A DNA stretch of 64,000 nucleotides, from NCBI GenBank assembly GCA_051885355.1, contig JBJEXC010000001.1, positions 14,359 to 78,358 of the forward strand. Direction: 5' to 3'. A model generated the notes under the pieces. It searched no databases and had not been told where the DNA came from. It was given only the letters and a program-made list of their open reading frames with translations. Every line of letters starts with the position of its first letter. Position 1 is the first letter of the stretch. A program made the position numbers and the translations under genes. This stretch comes from Alphaproteobacteria bacterium. Lineage in GTDB: Bacteria > Pseudomonadota > Alphaproteobacteria > Rs-D84 > CACZYB01. Below, one piece after another: positions 4,856 through 52,525 of the stretch.

Positions 4856-6172
4856 ATGAAAATTTTAAGTTTTATTTTATTTATTATTCTATCAAATGTA
4901 TCATTTGCACAAAATGCTCCTGCGATAAAGGCATTAGAAAATGCAACTGAGGAAGTAGAAGTTTTTGACGATACAGAGTTCAAAGAATGGGTGGATGATT
5001 TTAAAAAAACTGCTGTAAAAAAACATAAAATTTCTAAATCTACTGTTGATGAAGCATTTAAAAATATAAAGTATGAACCAAAGGCGATTGCTTCAGATAG
5101 AAAGCAACCTGAATTTATGAAAACTTTTTGGAGTTATTATGATTCTGCATTAAAGCCGGAGCGTATTGCAGAGGGAAAAATCAAATTAAAAAAACATTAT
5201 AAATTATTTAATAAAGTTGCAAAGGAATACAATGTTCAACCACAAATTTTGATCGCATTTTGGGGAATGGAAACAAATTATGGAACCTATATAGGAAAGT
5301 ATAATATAATACAGGTTCTTACTACTTTGGCATTTGACCCAAGGCGTTCTGAATTTTTTACAAATGAACTTGTCAAGGCTTTACAGATTATAGACAAGGG
5401 ACATATGAAAGTTCCTGATATGGTTGGTTCGTGGGCTGGTGCGTTTGGTAATTTTCAATTTATGCCTTCGTCCTTTATTGCGTATGCGAAAGATGGTAAT
5501 GGTGATGGTAAAATTGATGTGATAAATAATATTGATGATGCAGTTTATTCTGCTGCAAATTATTTATCAAAAATGGGTTGGAATGGAAAACAGAAATGGG
5601 GGCGTCCAGTCCTTATTGATAAAAAGGATAAGGATTTATGGGAATATGTAAATTCAAACGAATGGAAAACTGTAAATTTCTTTAAAAATTTAGGGGTGAA
5701 ACAATATAATGGCTCACCACTTCCTGATTCTGATATAAATGCAAGTTTGATTGCACCAAATGGTGTTAATGGACCTGTGTTCCTTGTGTATGATAATTTC
5801 AAATATATTATGCGTTGGAATGCCTCTACAAATTATGCTTTGTCAGTTGGGCTTCTTTCTGATGCAATAGTGTCTAACTCTACACCTTTGTTTGACAGAC
5901 CTGCAAATTGGAATTCAATACAGCCTATGACAACAGTCCAGATAAAGGAAATTCAAGAGGCATTAAAAAAACTTGGTATTTATGATACGACAGTATCGGG
6001 ACTTTATGGTAAAAAGACTATGCAGGCAATTAAGAAATATCAAAAGATGTTATTAAATGGAGATTCTAAAGTTTCTCCAAACAAAACACCAATTACAGAA
6101 TATAAATCTGGAAATCATATAGTTCAAGATGGCTATCCTTCCTTTGATTTATATGAAATGTTAGTAAAATAA
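4856..6172 (+). CDS. Lytic murein transglycosylase (MltB/Slt35-like) with C-terminal peptidoglycan-binding domain
   Basis: Signal peptide. MltB-family core (FWGMETNYGTY, EF-hand-like DGNGDGKID). C-terminal PG_binding_1-like repeat (LGIYDTTVSGLYGKKTMQAIKKYQK). Confidence 0.8.
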   Translation: MKILSFILFIILSNVSFAQNAPAIKALENATEEVEVFDDTEFKEWVDDFKKTAVKKHKISKSTVDEAFKNIKYEPKAIASDRKQPEFMKTFWSYYDSALKPERIAEGKIKLKKHYKLFNKVAKEYNVQPQILIAFWGMETNYGTYIGKYNIIQVLTTLAFDPRRSEFFTNELVKALQIIDKGHMKVPDMVGSWAGAFGNFQFMPSSFIAYAKDGNGDGKIDVINNIDDAVYSAANYLSKMGWNGKQKWGRPVLIDKKDKDLWEYVNSNEWKTVNFFKNLGVKQYNGSPLPDSDINASLIAPNGVNGPVFLVYDNFKYIMRWNASTNYALSVGLLSDAIVSNSTPLFDRPANWNSIQPMTTVQIKEIQEALKKLGIYDTTVSGLYGKKTMQAIKKYQKMLLNGDSKVSPNKTPITEYKSGNHIVQDGYPSFDLYEMLVK

Positions 6173-6173
6173 A

Positions 6174-6196
6174 GGGAGTTTATACTCCCCTTTTTT
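6174..6196. terminator. Bidirectional rho-independent terminator between convergent genes
   Basis: GGGAGT-TTAT-ACTCCC perfect hairpin flanked by an A-run and a T-run. Confidence 0.65.
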
Positions 6197-7703
6197 AATC
6201 ATAAAATCCATCTGGAACAGGGCAATATAATAAATTGTCATCACCATCAAAATTATATAAAGAGTTTTTATTTTTTATAGAATGATTTTCCTTTATTTCC
6301 TGTTCAAAAATATCATTTAATTTTTCATCGACAATTTCTGCTTCTGGTTCATCAAGGCTGTTAATTGCAGAAATAGTTTTTTCACCTATGATACCATCAA
6401 TTAATAATTCATCATCAGAGTTTAAAAATTGATTAGTGATAGTTTGGGTGGTTTTTGCAACCATATCTGGATTTTCCGTAATCACAGCATAAGTAAATAT
6501 ATCATTTGCAATTTCTTCGTGTTTTATTTCTGGAATTTTGTATTCATTGAAGATTTTTACTTCTTGCTTTATATCAGAATTTGGTTTTTGTTCCTCCACT
6601 TTTTTATGAAGTTTTCGAAACAGCATTGCATCTTGCATAAGTTTAGTTTCTTTTTCTTTGGTTTTCGTTGTTGTGTCGGAAGTATCTGTAATATTACATT
6701 CTTTGTTTTCATCACTATATGCAAAATGAAAGAATTGAGAGATGTCATCATTGACTTTGTTTGAATTGGGATTGTCAGAATTACTATATCCAATATGTCT
6801 CATCACAAGTTTTGCATTCTTAATACTGTCAATTTGAAAAGCATCAACAGACAGATTTCTAGCATCTTTGTCCCCTACTATTAAAATTTGAAACGGTATA
6901 ACTTTTCGCGTGTATTCAAGTTCGGGATTAAGTTCCATAAGTTCCTCTGTCGACATATTATTATCATCTGCAATTTTTTCCAAACTGTCATCTGGTTTTA
7001 CTTCGTAATAAAAGTAGGATTGAGGGTTGATAATTATATTGTCTTCATCTTTTTTAAATGGAATATCCGGAATTAAATCTATTCTGTCTTCCTGTGGTAA
7101 ATTAAAATAATCGTGGGCTTCGGGTTCTTTGGATTTTAGTAAAGTAAGTTTTTCTTTGCTCCATCTATTTAATTTTTCTTTATTTTTAAATATTTCACTC
7201 TCAAATTGTTCTTTTGTAAGGTTTGGACCGTACTTATCATATAATTCCATACCGAACTTTACAGCATTATTATCCGTATTTTGTGAGGAGAAAACATAAG
7301 AAAAAGGATGCCCCTTTAATAAATCATCTATTTGTCCGCCCAATTGTCTTCCAAGCACTTTATTTTTTTGTAATGTATAGCCCCAATGAATATTGCTCCA
7401 AATATCATGATCATAAATAAATTTATAATCATTTGGTATAGATGAACCAAATACAGTATGTCCCTTTTCATTTTTATATTTGTTTGTAATTTTTTTAAGT
7501 GTAGGTTTGAAATCAAAAATGTCAGAATTTGCGAGGTAATAAAGTTGCCAAGGATATTTTATTGCATCAAAATTCGGATCATTTATTTTTGCAATCATTT
7601 CTTTGTAGATAGAATCGATAATTTGATTGTAAACAGGTTTATTTTTATCAATATTATGAAAACCCTGTAATTTTTTTATTTTATTAACTTCTTGTTTTTT
7701 CAT
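6195..7703 (-). CDS. Modular cell-wall-binding protein: unknown N-terminal domain + LysM + acidic linker + C-terminal PG_binding_1 (endolysin- or effector-like)
   Basis: 502-aa ORF with no signal peptide. LysM consensus (YYEVKPDDSLEKIADDNNMSTEELMELNPEL...IPFQILIV). C-terminal DGIIGEKTISAINSL PG-binding motif. N-terminal ~200 aa (YDHDIWSNIHWGY, GHPFSYVF) matches nothing I recognise. Confidence 0.75.
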   Translation of the reverse strand: MKKQEVNKIKKLQGFHNIDKNKPVYNQIIDSIYKEMIAKINDPNFDAIKYPWQLYYLANSDIFDFKPTLKKITNKYKNEKGHTVFGSSIPNDYKFIYDHDIWSNIHWGYTLQKNKVLGRQLGGQIDDLLKGHPFSYVFSSQNTDNNAVKFGMELYDKYGPNLTKEQFESEIFKNKEKLNRWSKEKLTLLKSKEPEAHDYFNLPQEDRIDLIPDIPFKKDEDNIIINPQSYFYYEVKPDDSLEKIADDNNMSTEELMELNPELEYTRKVIPFQILIVGDKDARNLSVDAFQIDSIKNAKLVMRHIGYSNSDNPNSNKVNDDISQFFHFAYSDENKECNITDTSDTTTKTKEKETKLMQDAMLFRKLHKKVEEQKPNSDIKQEVKIFNEYKIPEIKHEEIANDIFTYAVITENPDMVAKTTQTITNQFLNSDDELLIDGIIGEKTISAINSLDEPEAEIVDEKLNDIFEQEIKENHSIKNKNSLYNFDGDDNLLYCPVPDGFYD

Positions 7704-7811
7704 AAAAAATTCTCCTTTTATATTAAAAGTTTTTATTTTGTTCCATTTTATAGTTGATTTATGAAATAATTCTCGTTATAATAGAATTATTAAATAGCAA
7801 AGAGGTGCAAA

Positions 7812-8216
7812 ATGCAAAAAACAAAAAAAAATATAATTGATATTGTTAAATCATTATTTACTGATAAAACATTAAAGAAAATTTTAACAACATTAAAAAT
7901 AATCATAATTTTGTATTTTAGTCTACCATTTTTTATAATATTATTTAATTCAATAAGATTACAATCTAATTTTCAAAATAATCTTTGGTTTGTTTATATT
8001 TATATTTTGGCTCTTGCATTTTATTTTTCTTTTATGTATTTTTTAATGGTACAGGCATCAAAAAAATTCCTTGTCCATTTAATATTGCTTATGTATTTGC
8101 TTGTTAATTTATTGTTTTTTCCACAACCTTATAGAGAAATGATTTTAATAATTTCTTTATTGTTGTTTTTTATATTTGCTCTTTTATCAAATGGAGGAAA
8201 TAAGAATGATAAATAA
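7812..8216 (+). CDS. Small multi-pass membrane protein (hypothetical)
   Basis: 134-aa hydrophobic ORF. RBS AGAGGTG 6 nt upstream of ATG. Contains an A9 run near the 5' end. AT-rich, low confidence. Confidence 0.35.
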   Translation: MQKTKKNIIDIVKSLFTDKTLKKILTTLKIIIILYFSLPFFIILFNSIRLQSNFQNNLWFVYIYILALAFYFSFMYFLMVQASKKFLVHLILLMYLLVNLLFFPQPYREMILIISLLLFFIFALLSNGGNKNDK

Positions 8217-8547
8217 ATTGCATAAAAATTTTATAATGAAATTTTTCTACTATATAATAATGCTTAGTTGTAATTTCTTTATTGCCTTATTTTGGGGAAT
8301 GTTATCTATATTTATGTATCCATTTGAAAGAGAGTGCCCTGAGGAATATTATGATGTTTATCAATGTCCCAAACCCAGTGATATAGAACTTTATTCTTTT
8401 TCAATACTTTCTTTTATTGTTGTTTTTGCATTGTTAATCCTTTCGAATAATTTTGTATTTAAAAATGTAAAGGATAAGTGGGGTAGAACCTTTGCATTTA
8501 TTATGTTTTATGTCCTTCCTATAATAAATTACATCATTAATAAATGA
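8176..8547 (+). CDS. Small membrane protein, paralog of the 8646-8915 ORF
   Basis: Shares ...Y..P...E..L..F.I.SF....F.L.I......VFKN.K.K....FAF...Y... with the next ORF; 2-3 predicted TM helices. Confidence 0.4.
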   Translation: MLFYQMEEIRMINKLHKNFIMKFFYYIIMLSCNFFIALFWGMLSIFMYPFERECPEEYYDVYQCPKPSDIELYSFSILSFIVVFALLILSNNFVFKNVKDKWGRTFAFIMFYVLPIINYIINK

Positions 8548-8645
8548 GGTGTTTTATGGTAAAAAATAATTTGATATATTTGATATAATAGATTTTATTA
8601 TCATAAAATTTTTTCCGTTGATGTTTTTTTGTTGGAATAAATTTA

Positions 8646-8915
8646 ATGTATTCCATATTTGTTATTATAGGTTTATTTGGTTTCGGTCCTAATGTAGAAT
8701 ATGATACATTTGTGTGGGACATTGTCAGATATTACGATAGTCCATACCTTAGTGAGTTTCAGTTGGGACTTTTTATTTTCTCATTTTTCCTTTTTATAAT
8801 TACACAATTGTTTGTATTCAAAAATGCGAAGAAAACATCAATAAATGTATTTGCTTTCTGTGATTTCTATTTGTTTGGAATAATTGTAGTTTTATTAATG
8901 TTGTTTGGTTCGTAA
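8646..8915 (+). CDS. Small membrane protein, paralog of the 8176-8547 ORF
   Basis: Same conserved block (LFVFKNAKKTSINVFAFCDFYLFG vs NFVFKNVKDKWGRTFAFIMFYVLP); hydrophobic. Confidence 0.4.
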   Translation: MYSIFVIIGLFGFGPNVEYDTFVWDIVRYYDSPYLSEFQLGLFIFSFFLFIITQLFVFKNAKKTSINVFAFCDFYLFGIIVVLLMLFGS

Positions 8916-9181
8916 ATAATGGATAGACTTAATCCATTAGTGAATTTTACTATAGCATAATTTAGCAAAAAAGTCAAGAACAATTTTGGAACATTATTAT
9001 TTATACCGTTTGCCATTCTTGCAACCTCATAACTCAAACTAGGCTCCTTGCTAACCCTACTTGTCATTAAGAACAACTTCGTTCGGTATCTAATTCTCTC
9101 CCTTTCCGCTATTTGAATTAAGAAAAATTAAGTTATAAAAAAAAGCCCCCGAAAGGGAGTTTTTAAATAAGAAATATAATG

Positions 9182-10354
9182 TTATTTTTCGTAAATGCGA
9201 ACTTCATCAAACATTACATCATCAGTTCTCATTGTCAAAGCAACTCTTGATGCAGGAAGTCCCATTTCTGTTAATGTTGTCATAACATCCTTTACATTCT
9301 TTTTAATTGTGCCGTTTGATTTTCCTTGTGGAGCAACGCCAGATACTTCAAATGTAGCAGATGGGTTTCTTTCCAATACACGGCTTAAAGATTGATATAA
9401 AGGTTCTGCGAAATCAACAGATGATTTATCAAATTTTACTGTGATAATAGGTCTTGTCGATTTTGCAACTGGTGTTATATCAACAGGTGTAGAACTTGCA
9501 CGAGCAGGGCGAAGAGCAACTGCATCTCTGTTTTCAACCATCATAGGGGCACGAGGTGCTGGACGATGTGGTTGAGCAGATCTTGATTGCATACCATAAT
9601 CTTGTGCAGTTTCATTTATGAATGCTTCATAAGATTCGTCACTTGAAAACATTGAGCCACCATTTGCGAAGAAGTCAGTTGATGATGATGAACCATAAAG
9701 TTTTCCATTTTTAATGTTAAGTGCAACATCATTTAGGCTGAACTTTTCATTATCAACATAGGCTTGTTGTCTGTCTGCTTCTTGATTTAATTGACGAGCA
9801 AAAATTGAAATGTTTGAACCAATTTGTTTTGCTTCTTCTTCAAGAGCCTTTAATTGTTTATGGTCATCTTCTGTTGCACCACGGATTTTGTATGATGCTT
9901 GGATAGAACCAACCATATAATCAACCATTGATTGATCGGATTCTACATCTGCAACAAGTCTTTTTATATCAAAAGCAATGTTGTTGATTTTTTCAAGTTT
10001 TGCACGAGCATCTTTCCATTCATCCATAAGTTCAGGATTTCCAGGTGTTGTGCCAAGTTGCAATTTTGAATTGATTTGTGAAATTGCACTTCTGTAATCA
10101 GATACAGCAGTATTTGTTTCATTCCTCATTTGTTGAAGAGTATTTTTTCTTGAATCAACTACTGTTTTAAGTTGTTCTTGTTCTGCTTTGAAATTAGCAA
10201 TTTTATTTTTCATAAATGTGCCATCAAAAGCAGATGTTTGTTTTGCTTGTTTTGTTTCAGGCTTCTTATTATCACCAAAAAGTGTATCAGAAGTAGAAGA
10301 ACATGCACCCAAGATTACTATAGATAGTAATGTAAGTATGTTTTTTATTTTCAT
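9182..10354 (-). CDS. Coiled-coil lipoprotein (hypothetical)
   Basis: Signal peptide with lipobox ILGAC. Long predicted coiled-coil. Pro/Ala-rich segment (PHRPAPRAPMM). Terminator hairpin CTCCC-TTTC-GGGGG plus T8 immediately 3' (plus coordinates 9140-9170). Confidence 0.6.
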   Translation of the reverse strand: MKIKNILTLLSIVILGACSSTSDTLFGDNKKPETKQAKQTSAFDGTFMKNKIANFKAEQEQLKTVVDSRKNTLQQMRNETNTAVSDYRSAISQINSKLQLGTTPGNPELMDEWKDARAKLEKINNIAFDIKRLVADVESDQSMVDYMVGSIQASYKIRGATEDDHKQLKALEEEAKQIGSNISIFARQLNQEADRQQAYVDNEKFSLNDVALNIKNGKLYGSSSSTDFFANGGSMFSSDESYEAFINETAQDYGMQSRSAQPHRPAPRAPMMVENRDAVALRPARASSTPVDITPVAKSTRPIITVKFDKSSVDFAEPLYQSLSRVLERNPSATFEVSGVAPQGKSNGTIKKNVKDVMTTLTEMGLPASRVALTMRTDDVMFDEVRIYEK

Positions 10355-11167: not shown

Positions 11168-11241
11168 GGTCGGTTGGCAGAGAGGCTATGCAGAGGACTG
11201 CAAATCCTTGTACACTGGTTCGATTCCGGTACCGACCTCCA
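11168..11241 (+). tRNA. tRNA-Cys (GCA)
   Basis: Cloverleaf: acceptor GGTCGGT/ACCGACC, anticodon loop ACTGCAAAT (anticodon GCA), T-arm GGTTCGATTCC, discriminator T, encoded CCA. The track's ATG-started ORF at 11174 runs through it, so that start is spurious. Confidence 0.9.
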
Positions 11242-18435: not shown

Positions 18436-19620
18436 TTATCTATTTCTTGCTTGTGAAAGAGTAGCCAACTTTAGTCTCTCTTCATCACTTAACAATTTTT
18501 CAAATGCCTTTGTCGCATTCATTGGTAACTTGCCTGTTTCTCTATAATATTTTAAAATATCATTTTGTGTCGCAATATTTGATGGCACAGTCAATTCCCA
18601 ATTATAAAAGAATATATCAGAAAGAGGAGCACCCATTTCAGTTGCCTCTGGTGAAAAATTCATTTGTTCCCCAGTTGCAAGCATAAATTTTCTTTCTTCA
18701 ATTGCTTCATTTAATACAAAGTAATATTCACCAGCAGGGGAATTTACAACCATTTTTGTATCTTCTTCAAATATTTCGCCACTTTTTTCTTTTGCAATAA
18801 CTTTAAACAAAGGAGAGCGTTTATATTTACCGTCATCACCCTTGCCGTCATCAGACTTTGTTAAAAAAACAACAGCTTGATTTTCTTTTAATAAAGATTT
18901 TACAGTTTCATAAAATTTTTCAACTGGTTCAAAATCATTTTCACCCTTTGCATTTGTGAATGAACGAAGTCCATGAAATACTACAACACCATTATCTCCG
19001 TTTATTGCATCCATATAATCCTTTGCAGCGCGTTCAAATATTTCTGGTGTGTTTTCTTTCCAACCACCAAGACCGTCGGAAACACGACCACCAACAAACA
19101 TAGATAATTTTGCATTACGATTTATCTTTCTAATCATTTCTGAAACTGCTCTATTATCCTTTCTAAATGTCTGTGCTCTGTTTTGAAGTTCTTCCATTGA
19201 AGGAGTAGCAACAAAATCCGCTGGATAAGAAGTAATTTTCAAATCTGGATTGTTTTCTTTGAACTCATTTATCGCAACATTTGGCATAATAAGAGTAATT
19301 TTTTTCATATCCAAATCATTTGCATAATACTTATCAGAATTAAGTATAAATTGAATTTTATTTTCTTTATTTTTAATATCACTGTCTCTAAGTAAATCAT
19401 TAAAAATATCAATACCCATATCGCCTGCACTTATAATTTTAAGATTGCTTTGATGTGCCAAAGCATCTTTTACCTTTGCTTTTACATCTTTCATACTATC
19501 CTTTGATAAATCAAAAATAATATTTTCTGTATGCGTTGAAGCATTTACCAAAGAAGTCGCACTTGATGAATAACCTTTGTTCTTTTCAGAATTAATAATT
19601 CCAATTAAAGTTTCTTTCAT
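18436..19620 (-). CDS. Conserved hypothetical protein (394 aa)
   Basis: Long clean ORF convergent on and abutting the ABC-F stop. No diagnostic motif recognised (possibly ELM1/DUF1022-like; unverified). Confidence 0.5.
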   Translation of the reverse strand: MKETLIGIINSEKNKGYSSSATSLVNASTHTENIIFDLSKDSMKDVKAKVKDALAHQSNLKIISAGDMGIDIFNDLLRDSDIKNKENKIQFILNSDKYYANDLDMKKITLIMPNVAINEFKENNPDLKITSYPADFVATPSMEELQNRAQTFRKDNRAVSEMIRKINRNAKLSMFVGGRVSDGLGGWKENTPEIFERAAKDYMDAINGDNGVVVFHGLRSFTNAKGENDFEPVEKFYETVKSLLKENQAVVFLTKSDDGKGDDGKYKRSPLFKVIAKEKSGEIFEEDTKMVVNSPAGEYYFVLNEAIEERKFMLATGEQMNFSPEATEMGAPLSDIFFYNWELTVPSNIATQNDILKYYRETGKLPMNATKAFEKLLSDEERLKLATLSQARNR

Positions 19621-25097: not shown

Positions 25098-27224
25098 ATG
25101 AGAACAAGGAATGACATAGAAAAACATAAACACTCACAACCATTTTATCATTTAAAAGGGATAAAGTGTAATCTATTTATACTACTTGCCTATATCATAT
25201 TCTCTGTGCCTAATATCGCCACAGCCAAAAAGGTCAAACCTGCAAGAAAGCAAAATTTAAAACGCCAACAAATAAATTCACTAAAAACAATCCCCCAAAC
25301 CGATATTCCTACTAAAACACAAGATACACTCCCCCTTACAGAAACAGGAAACGACCTCTTACTAAAAATAAAGGAGGCGGAGGAGAAAAAAGAAGAAGAA
25401 AATAAAAAAGAACTTTTGCAAATCCTTAATGACAATATGATGAAAGTAAAGGACTCCTGCCTCGGTATAGAAAAGGATTTAAAGACCATCCAAGTATTAG
25501 CAGGAGTATCCACAGGAGCGAGCGGGTTGGGAACCCTTACCTCTGGCGGAGCATTGGTAAGCGGTATAGTGAAATCGGGAAAGGATAAGAAGATAGAGGA
25601 GAATAAAAAGGAGATACAAAAGAAACAGTTACAAATCAAGGTAATTAACGGAGAAAATAGACTTAATGAGATAGATGCACTTTTTGAAACATCAAAAAAT
25701 AGAAGAAAAAAAGATATAGAAGAATTTGCTCTAAAAAGGCAAGAAGTTATGAAAGAAGTTCCTTTATTGTATAGGAAATATAATGATACATTAAAAGAAT
25801 ATAAATCTTGTAAAGAAGATATTAATAAACAATTAGAAGATAATAACAATAATGAAGAATATAAAAAACTTTTTAATAGAAAAGAACAACTTCAAGAAAT
25901 AGCATATCAAAGATATAAAGAAAAACATTTAGATAATGAAGATCCTTATATAAAGGAAACCCAAATTTATATAGAAGAATTAAGTAAAGAAGAAAAAAAA
26001 GAATGGCAAGATATACAGTCCAAAAAATCTGTATTTGAAAAAGAAATATTTAATAAGAATATGACCTGTGAAACTCTTAAAGATAAAGCAGATGAAATAA
26101 GCAATAAAATGTATAACTTAGATAAAATATATATTGGTGCAGGAAATGGTATTATTCAATCATTTGGAGGAAGAAATTTTTTAAGACATTCTAATAATAC
26201 ATTTGCACAAGGTGTTTCAATGGATGGTAGATCCGATGTCACAAATAACTTATCTTCTGTTCTATATGTAGGGACATTACAGTATTATATGAAAACTCAA
26301 AAACAACTAAATCTTCCTGCTCTTGTAGGAGTTGAAGCTAATGATACAGATAAAATTCTTACAGAAGAGGAGCTTAATTCAATTGCATATCCAGAAGAAA
26401 CTTTTACTGATGTAGATTCTTATATAAATAGATATAAAACAACCCAATATGACGATAATGATAAAGAATATATGATAGAGCAAGCAACAACAGAAGTAGC
26501 ACCAATAGGAGAACTTAAAAAACTTCAAAGTTTGCATTTAGAAAAAACACAGATAGAAAATAATAAACAAGATTTACTTTACAATTATGATAATGCAGAA
26601 ATTTATACCACCCAAGAGGATAAAGACAGGCTTACAAGAGAAATTGGAAAACTTCATCGTGATAACGAAAAACTTAACAATACCTCTAAAACCCTAGGCA
26701 ATGTCAGAACAGGTCTTATGGCGGGAAGTATAGCCACCTCGGCTACCTCTACTATCACCTCCGGTATCAATATCAAAAAACTCGACGACCTCATAGATAA
26801 AATAAAATCCTGTAATGCCTCTATCAACTCCCTTAAAACTAACCTAAATAATGCTATGGCGGAGGGGGCTGATACAGACCTTACCCTTTATAAGAACATA
26901 GCGAATTCTTGTAATGACTTAGACAGTAATAATATAAAAGACATAAAGGGAGTAATGACAGCCTCAACTATTGTAGGTGGTATAGGAACAGCGACAAGTG
27001 TTGCAGGCACTATAACTTCAGCCCTTGCAAACACGGAAAAAGTTCGTAAAGATGACAGTGAGGAAGGGGTAAAGAAGGAGAAGGGATTGAATCTAGCCTC
27101 AAACATAATGGCAGGAGTAACGACAGGGACTAGTGCAGGAGGGATAGTGTTAGGAGCGGTGACACTTAAGAAACTGCAAGACAATGTGGATAGAGCTGAA
27201 AGATGTGAGAAAGTATTGAAATAA
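25098..27224 (+). CDS. Large secreted/surface coiled-coil protein with four glycine-zipper (small-residue) helices
   Basis: Signal peptide (LLAYIIFSVPNIATA). Long K/E-rich coiled-coil. Repeated G/S/T-rich helix motifs (LAGVSTGASGLGTLTSGGALVSGIV; IVGGIGTATSVAGTITSALA; MAGVTTGTSAGGIVLGAV). Confidence 0.6.
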   Translation: MRTRNDIEKHKHSQPFYHLKGIKCNLFILLAYIIFSVPNIATAKKVKPARKQNLKRQQINSLKTIPQTDIPTKTQDTLPLTETGNDLLLKIKEAEEKKEEENKKELLQILNDNMMKVKDSCLGIEKDLKTIQVLAGVSTGASGLGTLTSGGALVSGIVKSGKDKKIEENKKEIQKKQLQIKVINGENRLNEIDALFETSKNRRKKDIEEFALKRQEVMKEVPLLYRKYNDTLKEYKSCKEDINKQLEDNNNNEEYKKLFNRKEQLQEIAYQRYKEKHLDNEDPYIKETQIYIEELSKEEKKEWQDIQSKKSVFEKEIFNKNMTCETLKDKADEISNKMYNLDKIYIGAGNGIIQSFGGRNFLRHSNNTFAQGVSMDGRSDVTNNLSSVLYVGTLQYYMKTQKQLNLPALVGVEANDTDKILTEEELNSIAYPEETFTDVDSYINRYKTTQYDDNDKEYMIEQATTEVAPIGELKKLQSLHLEKTQIENNKQDLLYNYDNAEIYTTQEDKDRLTREIGKLHRDNEKLNNTSKTLGNVRTGLMAGSIATSATSTITSGINIKKLDDLIDKIKSCNASINSLKTNLNNAMAEGADTDLTLYKNIANSCNDLDSNNIKDIKGVMTASTIVGGIGTATSVAGTITSALANTEKVRKDDSEEGVKKEKGLNLASNIMAGVTTGTSAGGIVLGAVTLKKLQDNVDRAERCEKVLK

Positions 27225-35420: not shown

Positions 35421-35726
35421 ATGAAAAGATTTTTTTTAATATCAACAATACCAATATTTCTGGTTTTATTTGAATATGATGCATTCCCATCATCATTGGA
35501 TACAGCCCTACAAAAATACTGCATTCCAAAAGATGCAACTTATTGCTCCAGTAGTTTTAGGGCAAGATATAATATTGCAAATGATAGATGTGATTGCGCG
35601 AACAATACTTACCTAGAATATGATGCTTCAAAAAGACATTGCAAAATAAAATGTCCAGCAGGAAGTTATCCAGCCATAATACCATCATGTTCGGCTGGGT
35701 CAGTAAAATTTTTAATTGCACAATAA
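35421..35726 (+). CDS. Small secreted Cys-rich protein with ephrin-receptor/TNFR-like Cys repeat
   Basis: Strong RBS AAAGGAG. Signal peptide MKRFFLISTIPIFLVLF. CDCANNTYLEYDASKRHCKIKCPAGSY repeat (CxC..NTY...C..CP.G.Y). Confidence 0.6.
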   Translation: MKRFFLISTIPIFLVLFEYDAFPSSLDTALQKYCIPKDATYCSSSFRARYNIANDRCDCANNTYLEYDASKRHCKIKCPAGSYPAIIPSCSAGSVKFLIAQ

Positions 35727-35746
35727 ATATAAATAAGGAGTGGAAA

Positions 35747-37069
35747 ATGAAAAATAAAACAAAAATATTAATTGCTTCAAGTATATTGGGGGGAATGTCA
35801 ATTCCAGTATATTCACAAATATATATGTGTAAAACATGCCCAGCAAATACTTATTCAAACGGAAGTCAATGTGTCCCATGCGGGCAATACCAATATTCAA
35901 ATGCAGGTTCTTCATCTTGCACAGATTTAAAATATCAGATAGAAAGCACGGTTGCAAGTTTAACAAAGGGAGGACAACAAACAGAAGGAACTTTAACCCC
36001 AGGATATTATGTAGTAATCCTTGGTGGTGGTAATGGTGGAGGAAGTCGAGACAACAAGTATATAGAGAACAATAGTGGATTACTTTCCTGGAATATTAAC
36101 AGCAATTTTAATATATTTAATGATAAATTTATGAAATTAAGTTGTGAAGAAGATGCAAGCGATGATGATTATTATTCATATACTAATATATTTCCAAAAA
36201 ATAAATATACTGTTCCTTATTCCAAAGCAGGTTTAGGGGCACAAATGCAATATGTTATAAAAGTTGATACAAATACCCCATATATTCTTGCATCTGGTGA
36301 AGATGGAAAAAGTGATGGCTCTGCATGTGGTGGTGGCGGTGGTTCCTGGTTAAAACTTGGTAATACCTATTATGTCGCTGGTGGCGGTGGAGGTGGTGTT
36401 AATATACATAACTATTCTAGGTATAGGAGTCCGGAAGGTGGTGCTGGTGGTGGTATCGGTGCCGGCGGTGGCGGTGGTGACCATTATAAAGGTTTAGTCG
36501 GTGCTGCAGGTGGAGCAAGTGGACATTACTCTGGTGGTGCTGGTGGTAGAGGTGATAGAGCAGGTGGAGTAGGTTCCGGTCCACAAGGAGGTCGAGGTGG
36601 TAATGTTGATAGAACAGCATCTTGTCATACAGCAGAAATTGAAGTTGCAAGTGGAAATCCTTATGGAGGTCTTGGTGGAGTAACATCAAGAGATAGTAAT
36701 TGTTCATCAACTATGTCAAAAATTAGTTTTAAATATCCAACATGTTCCAACTATGCTTCCTATAACAAAAATCTACCTGTAGAACGTACCGAAGAGTATG
36801 ATTGCGATAGTGATAATAATTGTTATTATAAATATTGTAATACATCATATTTTGGAACAGAAGTTTGTTCATTTAATGAGTATAGAGAGTATGACGACGA
36901 TGATGATATTGTTGCTAGATATTTAGCAAATTTATTCATTGCCTCTGAAGATACTTTCAGTAATTATATAAGAAATGGAGAAGATGGTAAAACATCACAT
37001 ACTTCTAATACAAATAAATTTAATAATCAATTGTGTAGGAACTGTGCAAAGATATTTAAAATAAAATAA
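35747..37069 (+). CDS. Secreted protein: N-terminal ephrin-receptor-like Cys repeat + long Gly-rich blocks + Cys/acidic C-terminal region
   Basis: RBS AAGGAG. Signal peptide. CKTCPANTYSNGSQCVPCGQYQYSNAGSSSC (paralogous to the previous gene). Gly-rich blocks (GYYVVILGGGNGGG, TYYVAGGGGGGV, GGAGGGIGAGGGGGD...GGAGGRGDRAGG). DDDDD stretch. Terminator follows. Confidence 0.7.
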   Translation: MKNKTKILIASSILGGMSIPVYSQIYMCKTCPANTYSNGSQCVPCGQYQYSNAGSSSCTDLKYQIESTVASLTKGGQQTEGTLTPGYYVVILGGGNGGGSRDNKYIENNSGLLSWNINSNFNIFNDKFMKLSCEEDASDDDYYSYTNIFPKNKYTVPYSKAGLGAQMQYVIKVDTNTPYILASGEDGKSDGSACGGGGGSWLKLGNTYYVAGGGGGGVNIHNYSRYRSPEGGAGGGIGAGGGGGDHYKGLVGAAGGASGHYSGGAGGRGDRAGGVGSGPQGGRGGNVDRTASCHTAEIEVASGNPYGGLGGVTSRDSNCSSTMSKISFKYPTCSNYASYNKNLPVERTEEYDCDSDNNCYYKYCNTSYFGTEVCSFNEYREYDDDDDIVARYLANLFIASEDTFSNYIRNGEDGKTSHTSNTNKFNNQLCRNCAKIFKIK

Positions 37070-50019: not shown

Positions 50020-51438
50020 TTATCCCAGTTTATTTTTATATTTTGCAATAATATTTTTTACTATTGTTTTAAAATGTTCACCTCTTGCTTCAAAAGATTT
50101 ATATTGATCAAACGAAGCACACGCAGGGGACAAAATCACAACAGGATTAGTAACCTTTTTCTTTTTTAAATCATGAATAGCAAGTTTAAAGGCCTTAATT
50201 ACAGCCTTATCCAACTTATGACATTTATATGTAGGAACAATTTTCTTTGTTTGATTATAAAACTCATTTTCACATTCCCCAATGGTAAAGATTCGTTTTA
50301 TATTTCCATTTGAAAGTTGAGGTATCAAAATATTAATTCCTCCCTCTTTCTTTCTTCCTCCAATAATCCAATAAACATCATCAAGGGACGAAATTGCGTA
50401 TTGTGTAGCCTCCGCATTAGTAGCCTTTGAATCATTTATAAATTCAACAGAGGCAAAATCAGCAACCTTTTCAACTCTGTGTTCCAAAGGTGTAAAAGTT
50501 TTTATTGCATTAAGTATTTTTGATGTTGCAATTCCAACTCTCTTTGCAACCGCAAAACTTACAACAATATTTTGCCAATTATGCTTTCCTTTTAAATTTG
50601 AAAGTGTTTTAAGGTCAAATAATTCCTTCTTTTCCCCCTTTGTATTATCAATTAAAATTCCAAAAGAATTTACATAATACCCATCAACTTTTCTGTTAAA
50701 TGAAACAGGAATATTATGCACCAAAGAAGAAGATTCCTTTTGAAGTTCATTAAAAATTTTCTTCGTATATTCATCATCAACAGCAATGACATTTGAGAAA
50801 TTTTTCTTTGATACTCTGTTAAATATTCGCTTTTTAACATTGACATATCCATCCATTCCATTATGTCTTGATAAATGATCAGGAGTAATATTTAAAAGTG
50901 CAGATATATCAAAATCAATAGATGGAGAAAGTTCAATCTGATAACTTGACATTTCAAACACATACCAACCATCACTTCCAAGATTTGGCAAATCAAAAAC
51001 CGGTATCCCAAAATTTCCACCAATAGCAGTAGGAATCTCATTTTCCTTTAATATATGATGCACCAAAGCCGTAGTTGTCGACTTTCCATTTGTTCCTGTA
51101 ATTCCTATGTAATGTGCATCTTTATAAGTCGAAACAAACAACTCTATATCATCAAGAATTTTAACCCCAGCATCTTTTGCCCTTTGTGCAATAGGATGAG
51201 GAGCAGGGTATGTATGAGGTATCCCAGGGCTTATCACCAAAAATTCCACAGAACCAAAATCAACACTCATAAGGTCCTGAATAGTTGCCCCAAAGTTTGA
51301 TGCCTCTTTCCTTAATTCCTCTTTATTATCCCACGCTATGACATGAATCCCGCGTTGCTTTAATTCCCTAACAACAGCCATACCACTTTTCCCAAGTCCA
51401 AATACAGCGACTGTTTTATTAAGCAAATTATTTATCAT
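50020..51438 (-). CDS. murD: UDP-N-acetylmuramoylalanine--D-glutamate ligase
   Basis: GLGKSG and GITGTNGKSTT motifs. Start placed at Met 18 of the track ORF. Confidence 0.9.
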   Translation of the reverse strand: MINNLLNKTVAVFGLGKSGMAVVRELKQRGIHVIAWDNKEELRKEASNFGATIQDLMSVDFGSVEFLVISPGIPHTYPAPHPIAQRAKDAGVKILDDIELFVSTYKDAHYIGITGTNGKSTTTALVHHILKENEIPTAIGGNFGIPVFDLPNLGSDGWYVFEMSSYQIELSPSIDFDISALLNITPDHLSRHNGMDGYVNVKKRIFNRVSKKNFSNVIAVDDEYTKKIFNELQKESSSLVHNIPVSFNRKVDGYYVNSFGILIDNTKGEKKELFDLKTLSNLKGKHNWQNIVVSFAVAKRVGIATSKILNAIKTFTPLEHRVEKVADFASVEFINDSKATNAEATQYAISSLDDVYWIIGGRKKEGGINILIPQLSNGNIKRIFTIGECENEFYNQTKKIVPTYKCHKLDKAVIKAFKLAIHDLKKKKVTNPVVILSPACASFDQYKSFEARGEHFKTIVKNIIAKYKNKLG

Positions 51439-51451
51439 TTTTGTTACGCCT

Positions 51452-52525
51452 CTATCTAATTTTAAGTGATGATAAAGCAATAAGAGCAAGTATTATAGAT
51501 ATAATCCAAAATCTTAACACGACAGTTTGCTCACTCCAACCTTTAAGTTCAAAGTGATGATGTATAGGTGCCATTTTGAAAATTCCTTTACCTCTTAATC
51601 TAAATGATGCAAGTTGCAACATCACAGAAATTGCTTCCACAACAAAAATTGCACCACAAATAAGAAGTAAAAATTCACTCTTTGTAATAACACTTATTAC
51701 TCCCAAAGCAGAACCTATTGCAAGAGAACCTACATCTCCCATAAATATTTTTGCTGGATACGCATTGAACCATAAAAATCCTAACACAGCACCAATCAAA
51801 CTTCCGATAAAGACTGTAATTTCACCAGCCCCCGGCACATAAGGAAGAAATAGGTAAAGTGAAAAGTCAGCCCTTCCAATTAAATAAGATACAATTAAAA
51901 ATACAACAAGAGAACTAAGCATAATCATACTTGCAAGTCCATCAATTCCATCAGTTAAATTCACCGCGTTTGATGTTCCAACAATAACAAACGCAACAAA
52001 AATAAAATACAAAATTCCAATATCCCAAAGAATGTTTTTGAAAAATGGAACAGTTATTGCAGTTTTAAATTCGTATGGCATCAAAGAATAAATTCCATAA
52101 CATGCAATACCACTTAATATAAATTGTAAAACAAGTCTAAGTTTTGCAGATAATCCACGATAAGCATTTCCATGCACCACTTTGAAATAATCATCAATAA
52201 AACCGATAAGTCCAAATGCAATCATTGTAAAAAGCACAATCCATACATAACCATTTTTTAAATTACACCATAAAAGAGAAGATACAAGGATTGAAAAAAT
52301 CATCAACACACCACCCATAGTAGGTGTCCCTTGTTTTTTCAAATGCGATTGAGGCCCCTCTTTCCTTATAGGTTGAGCAAATTTATTTTTAATAAAATTT
52401 ATAAACCTTGTTCCAAACATTAAATATATAAAAAGTGATGTTAAAAGAGCAGCACCAGTTCTGAAAGTTATATATCTAAATATGTTAAAAATACCATCCC
52501 ATTGACTTACTAAACTATAAAACAT
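51452..52525 (-). CDS. mraY: Phospho-N-acetylmuramoyl-pentapeptide transferase
   Basis: 10-TM protein with conserved DD..DG.DGLA and HHH motifs. Confidence 0.95.
   Translation of the reverse strand: MFYSLVSQWDGIFNIFRYITFRTGAALLTSLFIYLMFGTRFINFIKNKFAQPIRKEGPQSHLKKQGTPTMGGVLMIFSILVSSLLWCNLKNGYVWIVLFTMIAFGLIGFIDDYFKVVHGNAYRGLSAKLRLVLQFILSGIACYGIYSLMPYEFKTAITVPFFKNILWDIGILYFIFVAFVIVGTSNAVNLTDGIDGLASMIMLSSLVVFLIVSYLIGRADFSLYLFLPYVPGAGEITVFIGSLIGAVLGFLWFNAYPAKIFMGDVGSLAIGSALGVISVITKSEFLLLICGAIFVVEAISVMLQLASFRLRGKGIFKMAPIHHHFELKGWSEQTVVLRFWIISIILALIALSSLKIR

Follow-up and report, generated by a model that had tools for sequence, protein, structure and literature searches.

We analysed a 64,000-nucleotide stretch (the window; contig JBJEXC010000001.1, positions 14,359 to 78,358) of an AT-rich, uncultured alphaproteobacterium with full wall synthesis. 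On its minus strand lies an uninterrupted ATG-to-stop open reading frame (ORF) of 502 codons (6195–7703), and divergent from it, across a 108-nt spacer, are three small hydrophobic membrane ORFs on the plus strand (O1, O2 and O3). The 502-aa protein combines an N-terminal domain of the Ntox44 polymorphic-toxin type with LysM and PG_binding_1-like modules, and is best regarded as a known toxin domain set in a new architecture. The explanation that we favour, and to which we give about an even chance, is a chromosomal module resembling toxin–immunity systems, in which an envelope-directed Ntox44 toxin is tethered to peptidoglycan and accompanied by membrane immunity proteins. The Ntox44 domain, read from its sequence, would be an enzymatically competent toxin, held at the peptidoglycan by LysM and the PG_binding_1-like module. 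Its target would lie outside the cytoplasm, in the wall or a membrane-linked wall precursor rather than in RNA, and O1 and the paralogues O2/O3 would most likely bind or block the toxin at the membrane and so shield the envelope of the producer. For the host, such a module may serve antagonism or lysis, as an accessory trait encoded at a variable site next to mltB.

Identity and fold of the N-terminal domain

The N-terminal domain (about residues 14–192; 7128–7664, minus strand) is, as judged from Pfam, profile searches, invariant residues and an AlphaFold2 (AF2) model, an Ntox44 polymorphic-toxin domain of the PF15607 type. The original prediction had held that it matches no family, a statement that the profile evidence overturns. 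The Pfam entry Ntox44, "Bacterial toxin 44" (PF15607), aligns to residues 62–157 over profile positions 11–104 of 104 at 20.4–22.6 bits, below its cut-off of 24. A search of 5.8 billion proteins retrieved only seven orthologues and a single non-orthologous match, P0008 (E 5e-8). The latter is an actinobacterial toxin annotated PF15607, and its C-terminal domain shares the motif YDIWSNIH[WY]GY and an exact YDKYGPNLTKEQF. An exhaustive search of 1.84 billion representative proteins with the N-domain profile gave 350 matches at E ≤ 1e-3, 82 of them at E ≤ 1e-10, and a wider alignment retrieved 959 proteins at E ≤ 1e-5, with the PF15607 annotation on all 120 matches listed. The Ntox44-domain profile built from A5 matches 258/258 collected proteins, and PF15607 is matched by 42/42 members of the final alignment, A6.

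Seven residues are invariant across these 42 diverse members, and all of them are kept in the window protein (D64, K66, D100, N104, G108, D144 and G151). Zhang et al. 2012 (PMC3482391) described the Ntox44 motifs as DxK, GNxxxG and DxxxD. In the window protein these read D64-F-K66, S103-N104-I-H-W-G108 and D144; the invariant positions thus correspond to DxK, GNxxxG and the first Asp of DxxxD, and the protein carries the motif set of that description. The second Asp of DxxxD is missing here (TDNNAV), a position that is not invariant in the family. Residues on which lysozymes, amidases and peptidases typically rely (Glu, Cys, His or Ser) are missing from the invariant set. The occurrence of its Asp/Asp/Asp-Lys-Asn residues at helix N-termini suggests a metal-dependent hydrolase, which is probably the chemistry of Ntox44.

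The AF2 model of the N-domain has a predicted local distance difference test score (pLDDT) of 88 and a predicted template-modelling score of 0.84. It is mainly helical, with a small three-stranded sheet and a C-terminal hairpin, and in the prediction it agrees with the all-alpha fold of Ntox44. The structural check that had been proposed for a hydrolase or toxin fold therefore ended with a confident model and no counterpart: Foldseek returned nothing at E ≤ 0.001 in PDB or BFVD, the best BFVD match being a phage DUF6973 protein (template-modelling score 0.38–0.47, probability 0.3) that serves as a lead only. The 42-sequence family profile found no relative in PDB, and the N-domain has no match to a known peptidoglycan-hydrolase fold or family. 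As far as these tools can see, the modelled Ntox44 fold is absent among solved structures. Staphylococcal nuclease was considered as a relative and discarded, the sequence searches of PDB giving chance matches only (E ≥ 0.03).

A signal-less wall-binding protein and its candidate membrane partners

The 502-aa protein (6195–7703, minus strand) is defined by its ORF, its domain matches, seven orthologues and the ratio of nonsynonymous to synonymous substitution rates (dN/dS). The highest Kyte-Doolittle value of any 19-mer in its first 60 residues is 0.01, so that neither a Sec nor a lipoprotein signal is present, in agreement with the original prediction of a minus-strand protein devoid of a signal peptide. 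A LysM follows the toxin domain (residues 233–276; 6876–7007, minus strand; PF01476, E 6.7e-8), its score of 32.8 bits exceeding the cut-off of 20.9. Next comes a conserved middle region (about residues 285–400; 6504–6851, minus strand) with acidic linkers on either side. It aligns with distant relatives of the same Ntox44–LysM–PG-binding layout, in which Y329 is nearly invariant, and has no Pfam match and low AF2 confidence.

The PG_binding_1/3-like module LLIDGIIGEKTISAIN (about residues 412–470; 6294–6470, minus strand) is recognised at the level of the family. The single sequence gives a sub-threshold PG_binding_3 match at residues 431–452 (E 0.067), whereas profile A9, which comprises residues 400–472 and the homologous repeats of distant relatives, matches the PG-binding domains of solved structures, namely endolysin 7rum (E 4e-6), the TtsA-like 6v3z (3e-3) and 6v40 (9e-3), phiKZ gp144 (3bkh) and 1lbu. 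One relative, P0101, exceeds the Pfam cut-off for PG_binding_1. Of the two wall-binding modules originally predicted, LysM was thus confirmed directly and the C-terminal PG_binding_1 through the family profile, the sequence alone falling below threshold. In the full-length AF2 model, ten-residue blocks across residues 411–470 have pLDDT values of 59–81; outside the N-domain and this region the model is poor (pLDDT 56). The protein ends in a conserved tail, DGDDNLLYCPVPDGFYD (…YCPVPDGFYD; 6198–6248, minus strand), identified in the orthologue alignment, where Y493, C494, P495, P497, G499, F500 and Y501 are invariant in the seven orthologues. VPxG[FY]-like tails are present in some distant relatives. 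Neither the tail nor the middle region has a known counterpart; the tail is a possible export signal. The NCBI name of an identical protein from an alphaproteobacterial metagenome-assembled genome (MAG) is 'LysM peptidoglycan-binding domain-containing protein'.

The divergent ORFs were predicted as three small hydrophobic proteins of which two are paralogous, and both this and their membrane topology hold. O1 (7812–8216, plus strand; 134 aa) has four predicted transmembrane helices and is a candidate immunity or export partner. O2 (8206–8547, plus strand) is a membrane protein of 113 aa. Its listed start is TTG 8176, yet its orthologues and the GGAGG box ahead of ATG 8206 leave little doubt that translation begins at this ATG, which gives an overlap of 11 nt with the O1 stop. 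O3 (8646–8915, plus strand; 89 aa) is a paralogue of O2, as seen in a common VFKNxK...FAF..FY block and cross-family BLAST E-values of 6e-5 to 8e-3, and corresponds to the remainder of a membrane protein of 117–126 aa. Its 5' part (8557–8645, plus strand), which encodes the first transmembrane helix, is out of frame and contains stops. DNA alignment with the three orthologues (L001, L003 and L005) reveals a 5-nt insertion (a TTTGA-like duplication) and an extra T in a T-run (indels at 8570–8631), which compensate each other; in between, the reading frame is lost over about 60 nt and meets TAA/TAG stops. Either the gene is truncated and restarts at ATG 8646, or the MAG assembly is in error.

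Seven orthologues of the 502-aa protein, with 73–82% identity, come from MAGs of related uncultured bacteria; a literature search turned up no paper on the source MAGs. At all recovered orthologue loci the toxin gene faces mltB-recJ in convergent orientation and diverges from the small ORFs, so that the synteny on which the original prediction was to be checked is kept. Orthologues of O1 occur in L001, L003 and L005 (29–57% identity) and those of O2 in L001 and L003, with none in L005. Past the small ORFs the synteny ends, in a lipoprotein gene in the window, unrelated genes in L005 and a podovirus-like remnant in L001/L004. The dN/dS values are 0.14–0.18 for the toxin gene, 0.15–0.33 for O3, 0.32–0.57 for O2 and 0.55–0.93 for O1, as compared with 0.05–0.10 for mltB. 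Together with the conservation, they indicate that the genes are real and that the membrane proteins evolve fast. The variable copy number (L005 lacks O2, and O3 is broken here), the O2/O3 paralogy and fast evolution beside a constrained toxin amount to immunity-like dynamics. The O2/O3 family is confined to this clade, and O1–O3 have no match in Pfam, NCBIfam or PHROGs, including the PHROGs holin and lysis families. The contig of L003/L006 (GCA_964530355.1, CAZHAL010000009.1) is titled "uncultured Bacteroidales bacterium", yet it is syntenic with the alphaproteobacterial MAG contigs (H+-PPase, HD, trmB-like, OmpA, recJ, mltB, toxin, small ORFs); the title is probably a binning or labelling error.

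The pairing with membrane proteins extends beyond this clade. Among 258 Ntox44-domain proteins, the domain is C-terminal in 136, the classical polymorphic toxins, and N-terminal in 52. In the N-terminal type LysM always comes next, followed either by PG-binding repeats (445–610 aa; P0014, P0018, P0029, P0033, P0059, P0071, P0076, P0101) or by the C-terminal part of the phage MuF head-protein domain (about 380 aa; P0013, P0022, P0158–P0187). At every readable locus a gene for a polytopic membrane protein of 94–225 aa adjoins the N-terminal-type gene, usually divergent and directly upstream. Such are O1–O3 in the window, L001, L003 and L005, and proteins of 173 aa (L007), 154 and 138 aa (L009/L019), 157 aa (L016), 162 aa (L020/L023/L027) and 178 aa (L032). 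Two tandem paralogous membrane proteins (116 and 94 aa) stand beside a broken toxin gene in L017, and in L018 a 225-aa polytopic protein occupies the classical immunity position, being encoded on the same strand immediately after the toxin gene. The partners at the other loci have no detectable homology to O1–O3, and it is therefore the arrangement and topology that are conserved, not the sequence. The expectation of partner genes was borne out by this recurrence; their proposed likeness to holins fared less well, given the missing PHROGs match and the divergent orientation.

The window protein shares with the Ntox44 polymorphic toxins carried by WXG100/LXG proteins of type VII secretion systems (T7SS), PAAR proteins of type VI secretion systems (T6SS) and Rhs proteins (Zhang et al. 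2012, PMC3482391) a catalytic domain that is homologous to theirs, keeps the invariant positions D-x-K, [GS]N-x3-G and D, and is mostly helical in its fold. It departs from the C-terminal placement of these toxins in that its domain is N-terminal, fused to LysM and PG-binding modules and free of a trafficking domain. In classical systems the immunity gene lies downstream on the same strand, whereas here a convergent mltB-like gene lies downstream and the partners are upstream and divergent. Two hallmarks of the classical polymorphic toxins, the C-terminal toxin position and the same-strand downstream immunity gene, are thus not found at this locus.

Site of action and the immunity position

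The immunity position of the classical toxins bears on where Ntox44 acts. In 80 metagenomic loci, the first same-strand ORF downstream of each C-terminal-type toxin gene was taken, giving 35 unique products. A hydrophobic segment is present in 26/35 of these products, as against 23/70 other ORFs of the same loci (Fisher p = 6e-5), and lies near the N-terminus (roughly within the first 70 residues) in 24/35, as against 13/70 (Fisher p = 7e-7), with immunity assigned by position only, through crude ORF calling and a hydrophobicity scale. Many of the products have clear lipoprotein signals or N-terminal anchors and some are small polytopic proteins; most of the exceptions resemble spurious, Arg-rich ORFs of GC-rich contigs.

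One exported family recurs. Its members in L013, L057 and L079 match each other pairwise at E 7e-40 to 8e-59, and the lipoprotein of L059 matches each of them at E 1.5e-7 to 3.5e-6. They have a signal anchor or lipobox and a C-terminal C...C...RYGxY...AP..G signature, and no Pfam entry covers them. From sequence and position, this family is a candidate cognate immunity family of the classical Ntox44 toxins. It was observed at L013 5094–5768, L057 1522-, L079 1888–2541 and L059 5320–5928, and also in L048, L050 and L073. Small polytopic families occupy the immunity position as well (L075/78/88/89/93; L065/L041).

Immunity proteins that are exported typify toxins whose site of action is the periplasm or the wall (Tse1/Tsi1, TelC/TipC, colicin M/Cmi). 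Taken together, the exported immunity-position products and the LysM/PG-binding fusions make an extracytoplasmic target the best-supported reading. By analogy, the proposed logic would be that of these envelope-acting toxins, a target outside the cytoplasm and a lipoprotein or membrane immunity protein; no sequence or fold relationship to Tse1/Tsi1, TelC/TipC or colicin M/Cmi was detected. The standalone relative P0012 has a Sec-type signal peptide, MKKPIFVLLVLFTSLSLG, and the Ntox44 homologues of corals bear signal peptides (PMC8162421). No immunity protein was found for Ntox44 by Zhang et al. 2012 (PMC3482391). Ntox44 is widespread, occurring in T6SS, T7SS, Rhs and MuF toxins and, through horizontal transfer, in reef-building corals, yet it has no solved structure. 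Three lines, the fusion to two PG-binding modules, the constant pairing with membrane proteins and the exported proteins in the immunity position, favour an envelope target over RNA. From these we infer the site of action and the immunity role of O1–O3, with the chemistry read from the invariant residues. The locus thus offers a testable alternative to the database annotation of Ntox44, and candidate immunity families that are absent from Pfam.

Several points weigh against an envelope-directed toxin–immunity module, the first being the annotation itself. In its Pfam-derived form Ntox44 is a predicted RNase, which later surveys including PMC8162421 repeat, and PMC9635880 (eLife) lists it among nuclease domains "characterized", citing Ma et al. 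2017. A literature search found no readable experimental paper on Ntox44 activity. The protein might accordingly be a nuclease toxin that acts in the cytoplasm, with LysM and the PG-binding module docking on target walls before import and the small ORFs being unrelated or serving as import or export helpers. In its favour, Zhang et al. 2012 (PMC3482391) placed Ntox44 among putative nuclease toxins. We regard this reading as improbable. Both histidines of the window motifs are unconserved in the family (WDHK becomes DFK, DLK or DDK, and NIHYGY becomes NISYGY or NVAYGY), which argues against a two-histidine RNase mechanism. Furthermore, the immunity-position proteins are mostly exported or membrane-bound, as expected for envelope-acting toxins and not for nucleases, and the N-domain model has no structural neighbour among solved nucleases.

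Other points against the envelope-toxin explanation concern the gene organization. The toxin domain is N-terminal in a protein that has no signal peptide, neither Pfam nor NCBIfam finds a trafficking domain (WXG/LXG, PAAR, Rhs), and no secretion system was found near the gene. The small ORFs are upstream and divergent rather than downstream, hhalign comparisons of O1–O3 with the partners of other Ntox44 genes and with three downstream "immunity" families gave no relationship, and the purely positional assignment of immunity described above belongs here too. The stable position beside wall genes (mltB here, Amidase_2/TolB in L027, an Rpf-like transglycosylase in L012) also fits a physiological wall enzyme. 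The protein could, on that ground, have an ordinary role in this lineage, as a non-toxic protein that remodels the wall or is anchored to it, with a co-opted Ntox44 domain and independent small ORFs. Synteny beside mltB/recJ is stable in all relatives, purifying selection acts over the whole length, and wall-enzyme neighbours recur in several lineages. Even so, this is the explanation that we consider least probable: only seven close relatives exist among 5.8 billion proteins, which is not housekeeping-like, the protein lacks a signal peptide, and chance would hardly account for a pairing with polytopic proteins that recurs in unrelated lineages.

In two of these lineages the gene convergent with the Ntox44 gene was again observed to encode a wall enzyme, an Amidase_2 protein beside TolB (L027 6828–7574) and, in an unrelated lineage, an Rpf-like transglycosylase with LysM (L012 5447–6121). 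These neighbours, which echo the mltB-like gene of the window, may reflect coincidence or a functional link.

Phage links and surroundings of the locus

MuF head proteins (Phage_Mu_F or SPP1 gp7-like) are reportedly fused to toxin domains in temperate phages. The closest non-orthologous relatives of the N-domain are such MuF fusions, with Ntox44 placed after the MuF motif in P0010 (39% identity) and an Ntox44–LysM–MuF order in P0013 and P0158–P0187. The window protein lacks MuF and has a PG-binding module at its C-terminus instead; no phage gene was observed in its surroundings. MuF-type genes end compact podovirus-like head/tail clusters that are set among housekeeping genes. One such cluster of about 10 kb (L007 570–11143; also L016) was observed between tgt and tig-clpP-clpX-lon on a gut alphaproteobacterial scaffold. 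It encodes a portal, Bbp19, a capsid, a tail protein and a Phage_lysozyme, with the Ntox44–LysM–MuF gene as its last member. A terminase was not noticed in this cluster, which could be a defective prophage or an element resembling gene transfer agents.

A second phage-like element lies within the clade of the window. Directly after the small ORFs of L001, the same contig carries a podovirus-like prophage remnant (L004 573–8434). This comprises a T7-type scaffold, a major head protein (phrog_3437, E 3e-78), a tail protein (phrog_376, E 4e-110) and a 204-aa terminase-large fragment, with no portal gene in the region examined. Homologues of its capsid and tail proteins are encoded in the L007 cluster. 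A phage origin of the module is plausible. A search for phages that carry the domain returned one IMG/VR contig only and none among INPHARED phages, and tblastn of the Ntox44–LysM–MuF protein against 50,697 phage records gave matches essentially through the MuF and central parts only.

These links bear on a further alternative, a phage-derived module of holin/endolysin type, possibly domesticated to bring about autolysis or to release proteins or particles in the manner of type 10 secretion, in which the small proteins would form the pore and Ntox44 would cut the wall. The protein has no signal peptide and two wall-binding modules, and the adjacent small proteins have two to four transmembrane helices and charged ends. 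Its PG-binding module belongs to the same sequence family as those of Gram-negative phage endolysins (phiKZ gp144, 3bkh; 7rum) and of the TtsA muramidases of type 10 secretion (6v3z, 6v40), and these proteins share with it the missing signal peptide and the nearby small membrane proteins. The MuF fusions at the ends of podovirus-like clusters and the podovirus-like remnant that directly follows the small ORFs of a close relative, with capsid and tail proteins homologous to those of L007, point the same way. The catalytic domain, by contrast, is no lysozyme, transglycosylase, amidase or peptidase: the wall-binding module of an endolysin is present, and a recognised peptidoglycan-hydrolase catalytic domain, with its typical Glu, Cys, His or Ser, is not. 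The PHROGs holin and lysis families give no match to the small ORFs, which adjoin the toxin gene divergently, not in the order of a single lysis cassette, and phage genes stand beside the locus of the relative (L004), with none beside the block in the window or L003. The L007 cluster has its own Phage_lysozyme beside small ORFs, Ntox44 is otherwise cargo of T6SS, T7SS and Rhs toxins, and the domain is nearly absent from the phage collections searched. We consider this alternative unlikely, although it is the leading rival of the toxin–immunity explanation. The original prediction had offered a phage endolysin or a peptidoglycan-targeting effector or toxin; the signal-less wall-binding toxin stands, and the endolysin is weakened by the lack of a hydrolase fold or family and of phage genes.

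The holin/endolysin alternative and the toxin–immunity explanation could overlap if the membrane partners also give the toxin its exit route. Candidate routes for the signal-less toxin are these partners, a pathway that reads a C-terminal signal (type I or type IV secretion systems; T1SS, T4SS) and cell lysis. Antibacterial T4SS effectors of the Xanthomonas type (X-Tfes) are signal-less, with wall-directed modules and a conserved C-terminal region. The window protein resembles them in these respects, and one distant relative (L009/L010) adjoins a VirD4-like gene. It differs in that no XVIPCD domain was identified and that no VirD4/T4SS coupling protein was found in a Pfam scan of the 64-kb window, which covered all ORFs longer than 476 aa except 50020–51489 (489 aa), and many shorter ones. 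The original claims that the organism encodes VirD4 and that the protein could be a T4SS effector thus find no support in the window, the latter being echoed only in that distant relative.

More broadly, and tentatively, Ntox44 may be an envelope-attacking enzyme with a new fold, and the unit of an N-terminal Ntox44, LysM, a PG-binding or MuF part and a membrane partner may represent an undescribed class of signal-less wall-directed toxins, shared by phage heads and by the chromosomes of uncultured Alphaproteobacteria and other bacteria, with partners that are perhaps both antidote and exit route. We rate this as doubtful, with a chance clearly below even.

The 502-aa gene and the small ORFs were described at the outset as an AT-rich block between an mltB-like and a lipoprotein gene, a description that was reproduced here. 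The GC content is 0.19–0.26 over 7500–9000, against about 0.29–0.35 in the flanks, which makes the block the most AT-rich part of its neighbourhood. The low GC of the small ORFs was considered as a sign of horizontal transfer and dismissed, as membrane proteins rich in Phe, Ile, Leu, Asn and Lys are low in GC anyway in an AT-rich genome. The left neighbour is a lytic transglycosylase gene of the mltB type (TIGR02283, E 3e-97; SLT_2, E 4e-105), and the product of the right neighbour (9182–10354, minus strand) has an N-terminus with a lipobox-like LSIVILGACSS, in agreement with a lipoprotein gene. The convergent mltB-like and toxin genes are separated by a bidirectional intrinsic terminator (6171–6192), with terminator-like hairpins on both strands. 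The divergent intergenic region of 108 nt (7704–7811), taken from the sequence as the promoter region, contains a sigma-70-like match, TTGATT-17-TATAAT (7754–7782, plus strand), although the number of such matches in the region is not above that in shuffled sequences. The 266-nt spacer that follows O3 gave no match in Rfam and tRNA scans.

The four-gene block is bracketed by two near-identical 14-mers, AAAGGGAGTTTATA (6171–6184) and AAAGGGAGTTTTTA (9152–9165), both within terminator hairpins. They may be no more than two terminators that resemble each other, or they may delimit a segment that was inserted.

The remaining window contains housekeeping genes (recJ, ftsH, recA, murJ, penicillin-binding proteins, Mur ligases and tRNA-Cys), and no phage genes were seen among the window ORFs examined. 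Two further ORFs, 25098–27224 (plus strand; 708 aa) and 18436–19620 (minus strand; 394 aa), have no significant Pfam match (E ≤ 0.01), and a third, 35639–37069 (plus strand; 476 aa), has a Pfam match only far below threshold (17.4 against 33.2 bits). The tRNA-Cys (GCA) at 11168–11241 overlaps the 5' end of the listed infC-like ORF (TTG 11174), and the true start of IF3 is therefore further downstream.

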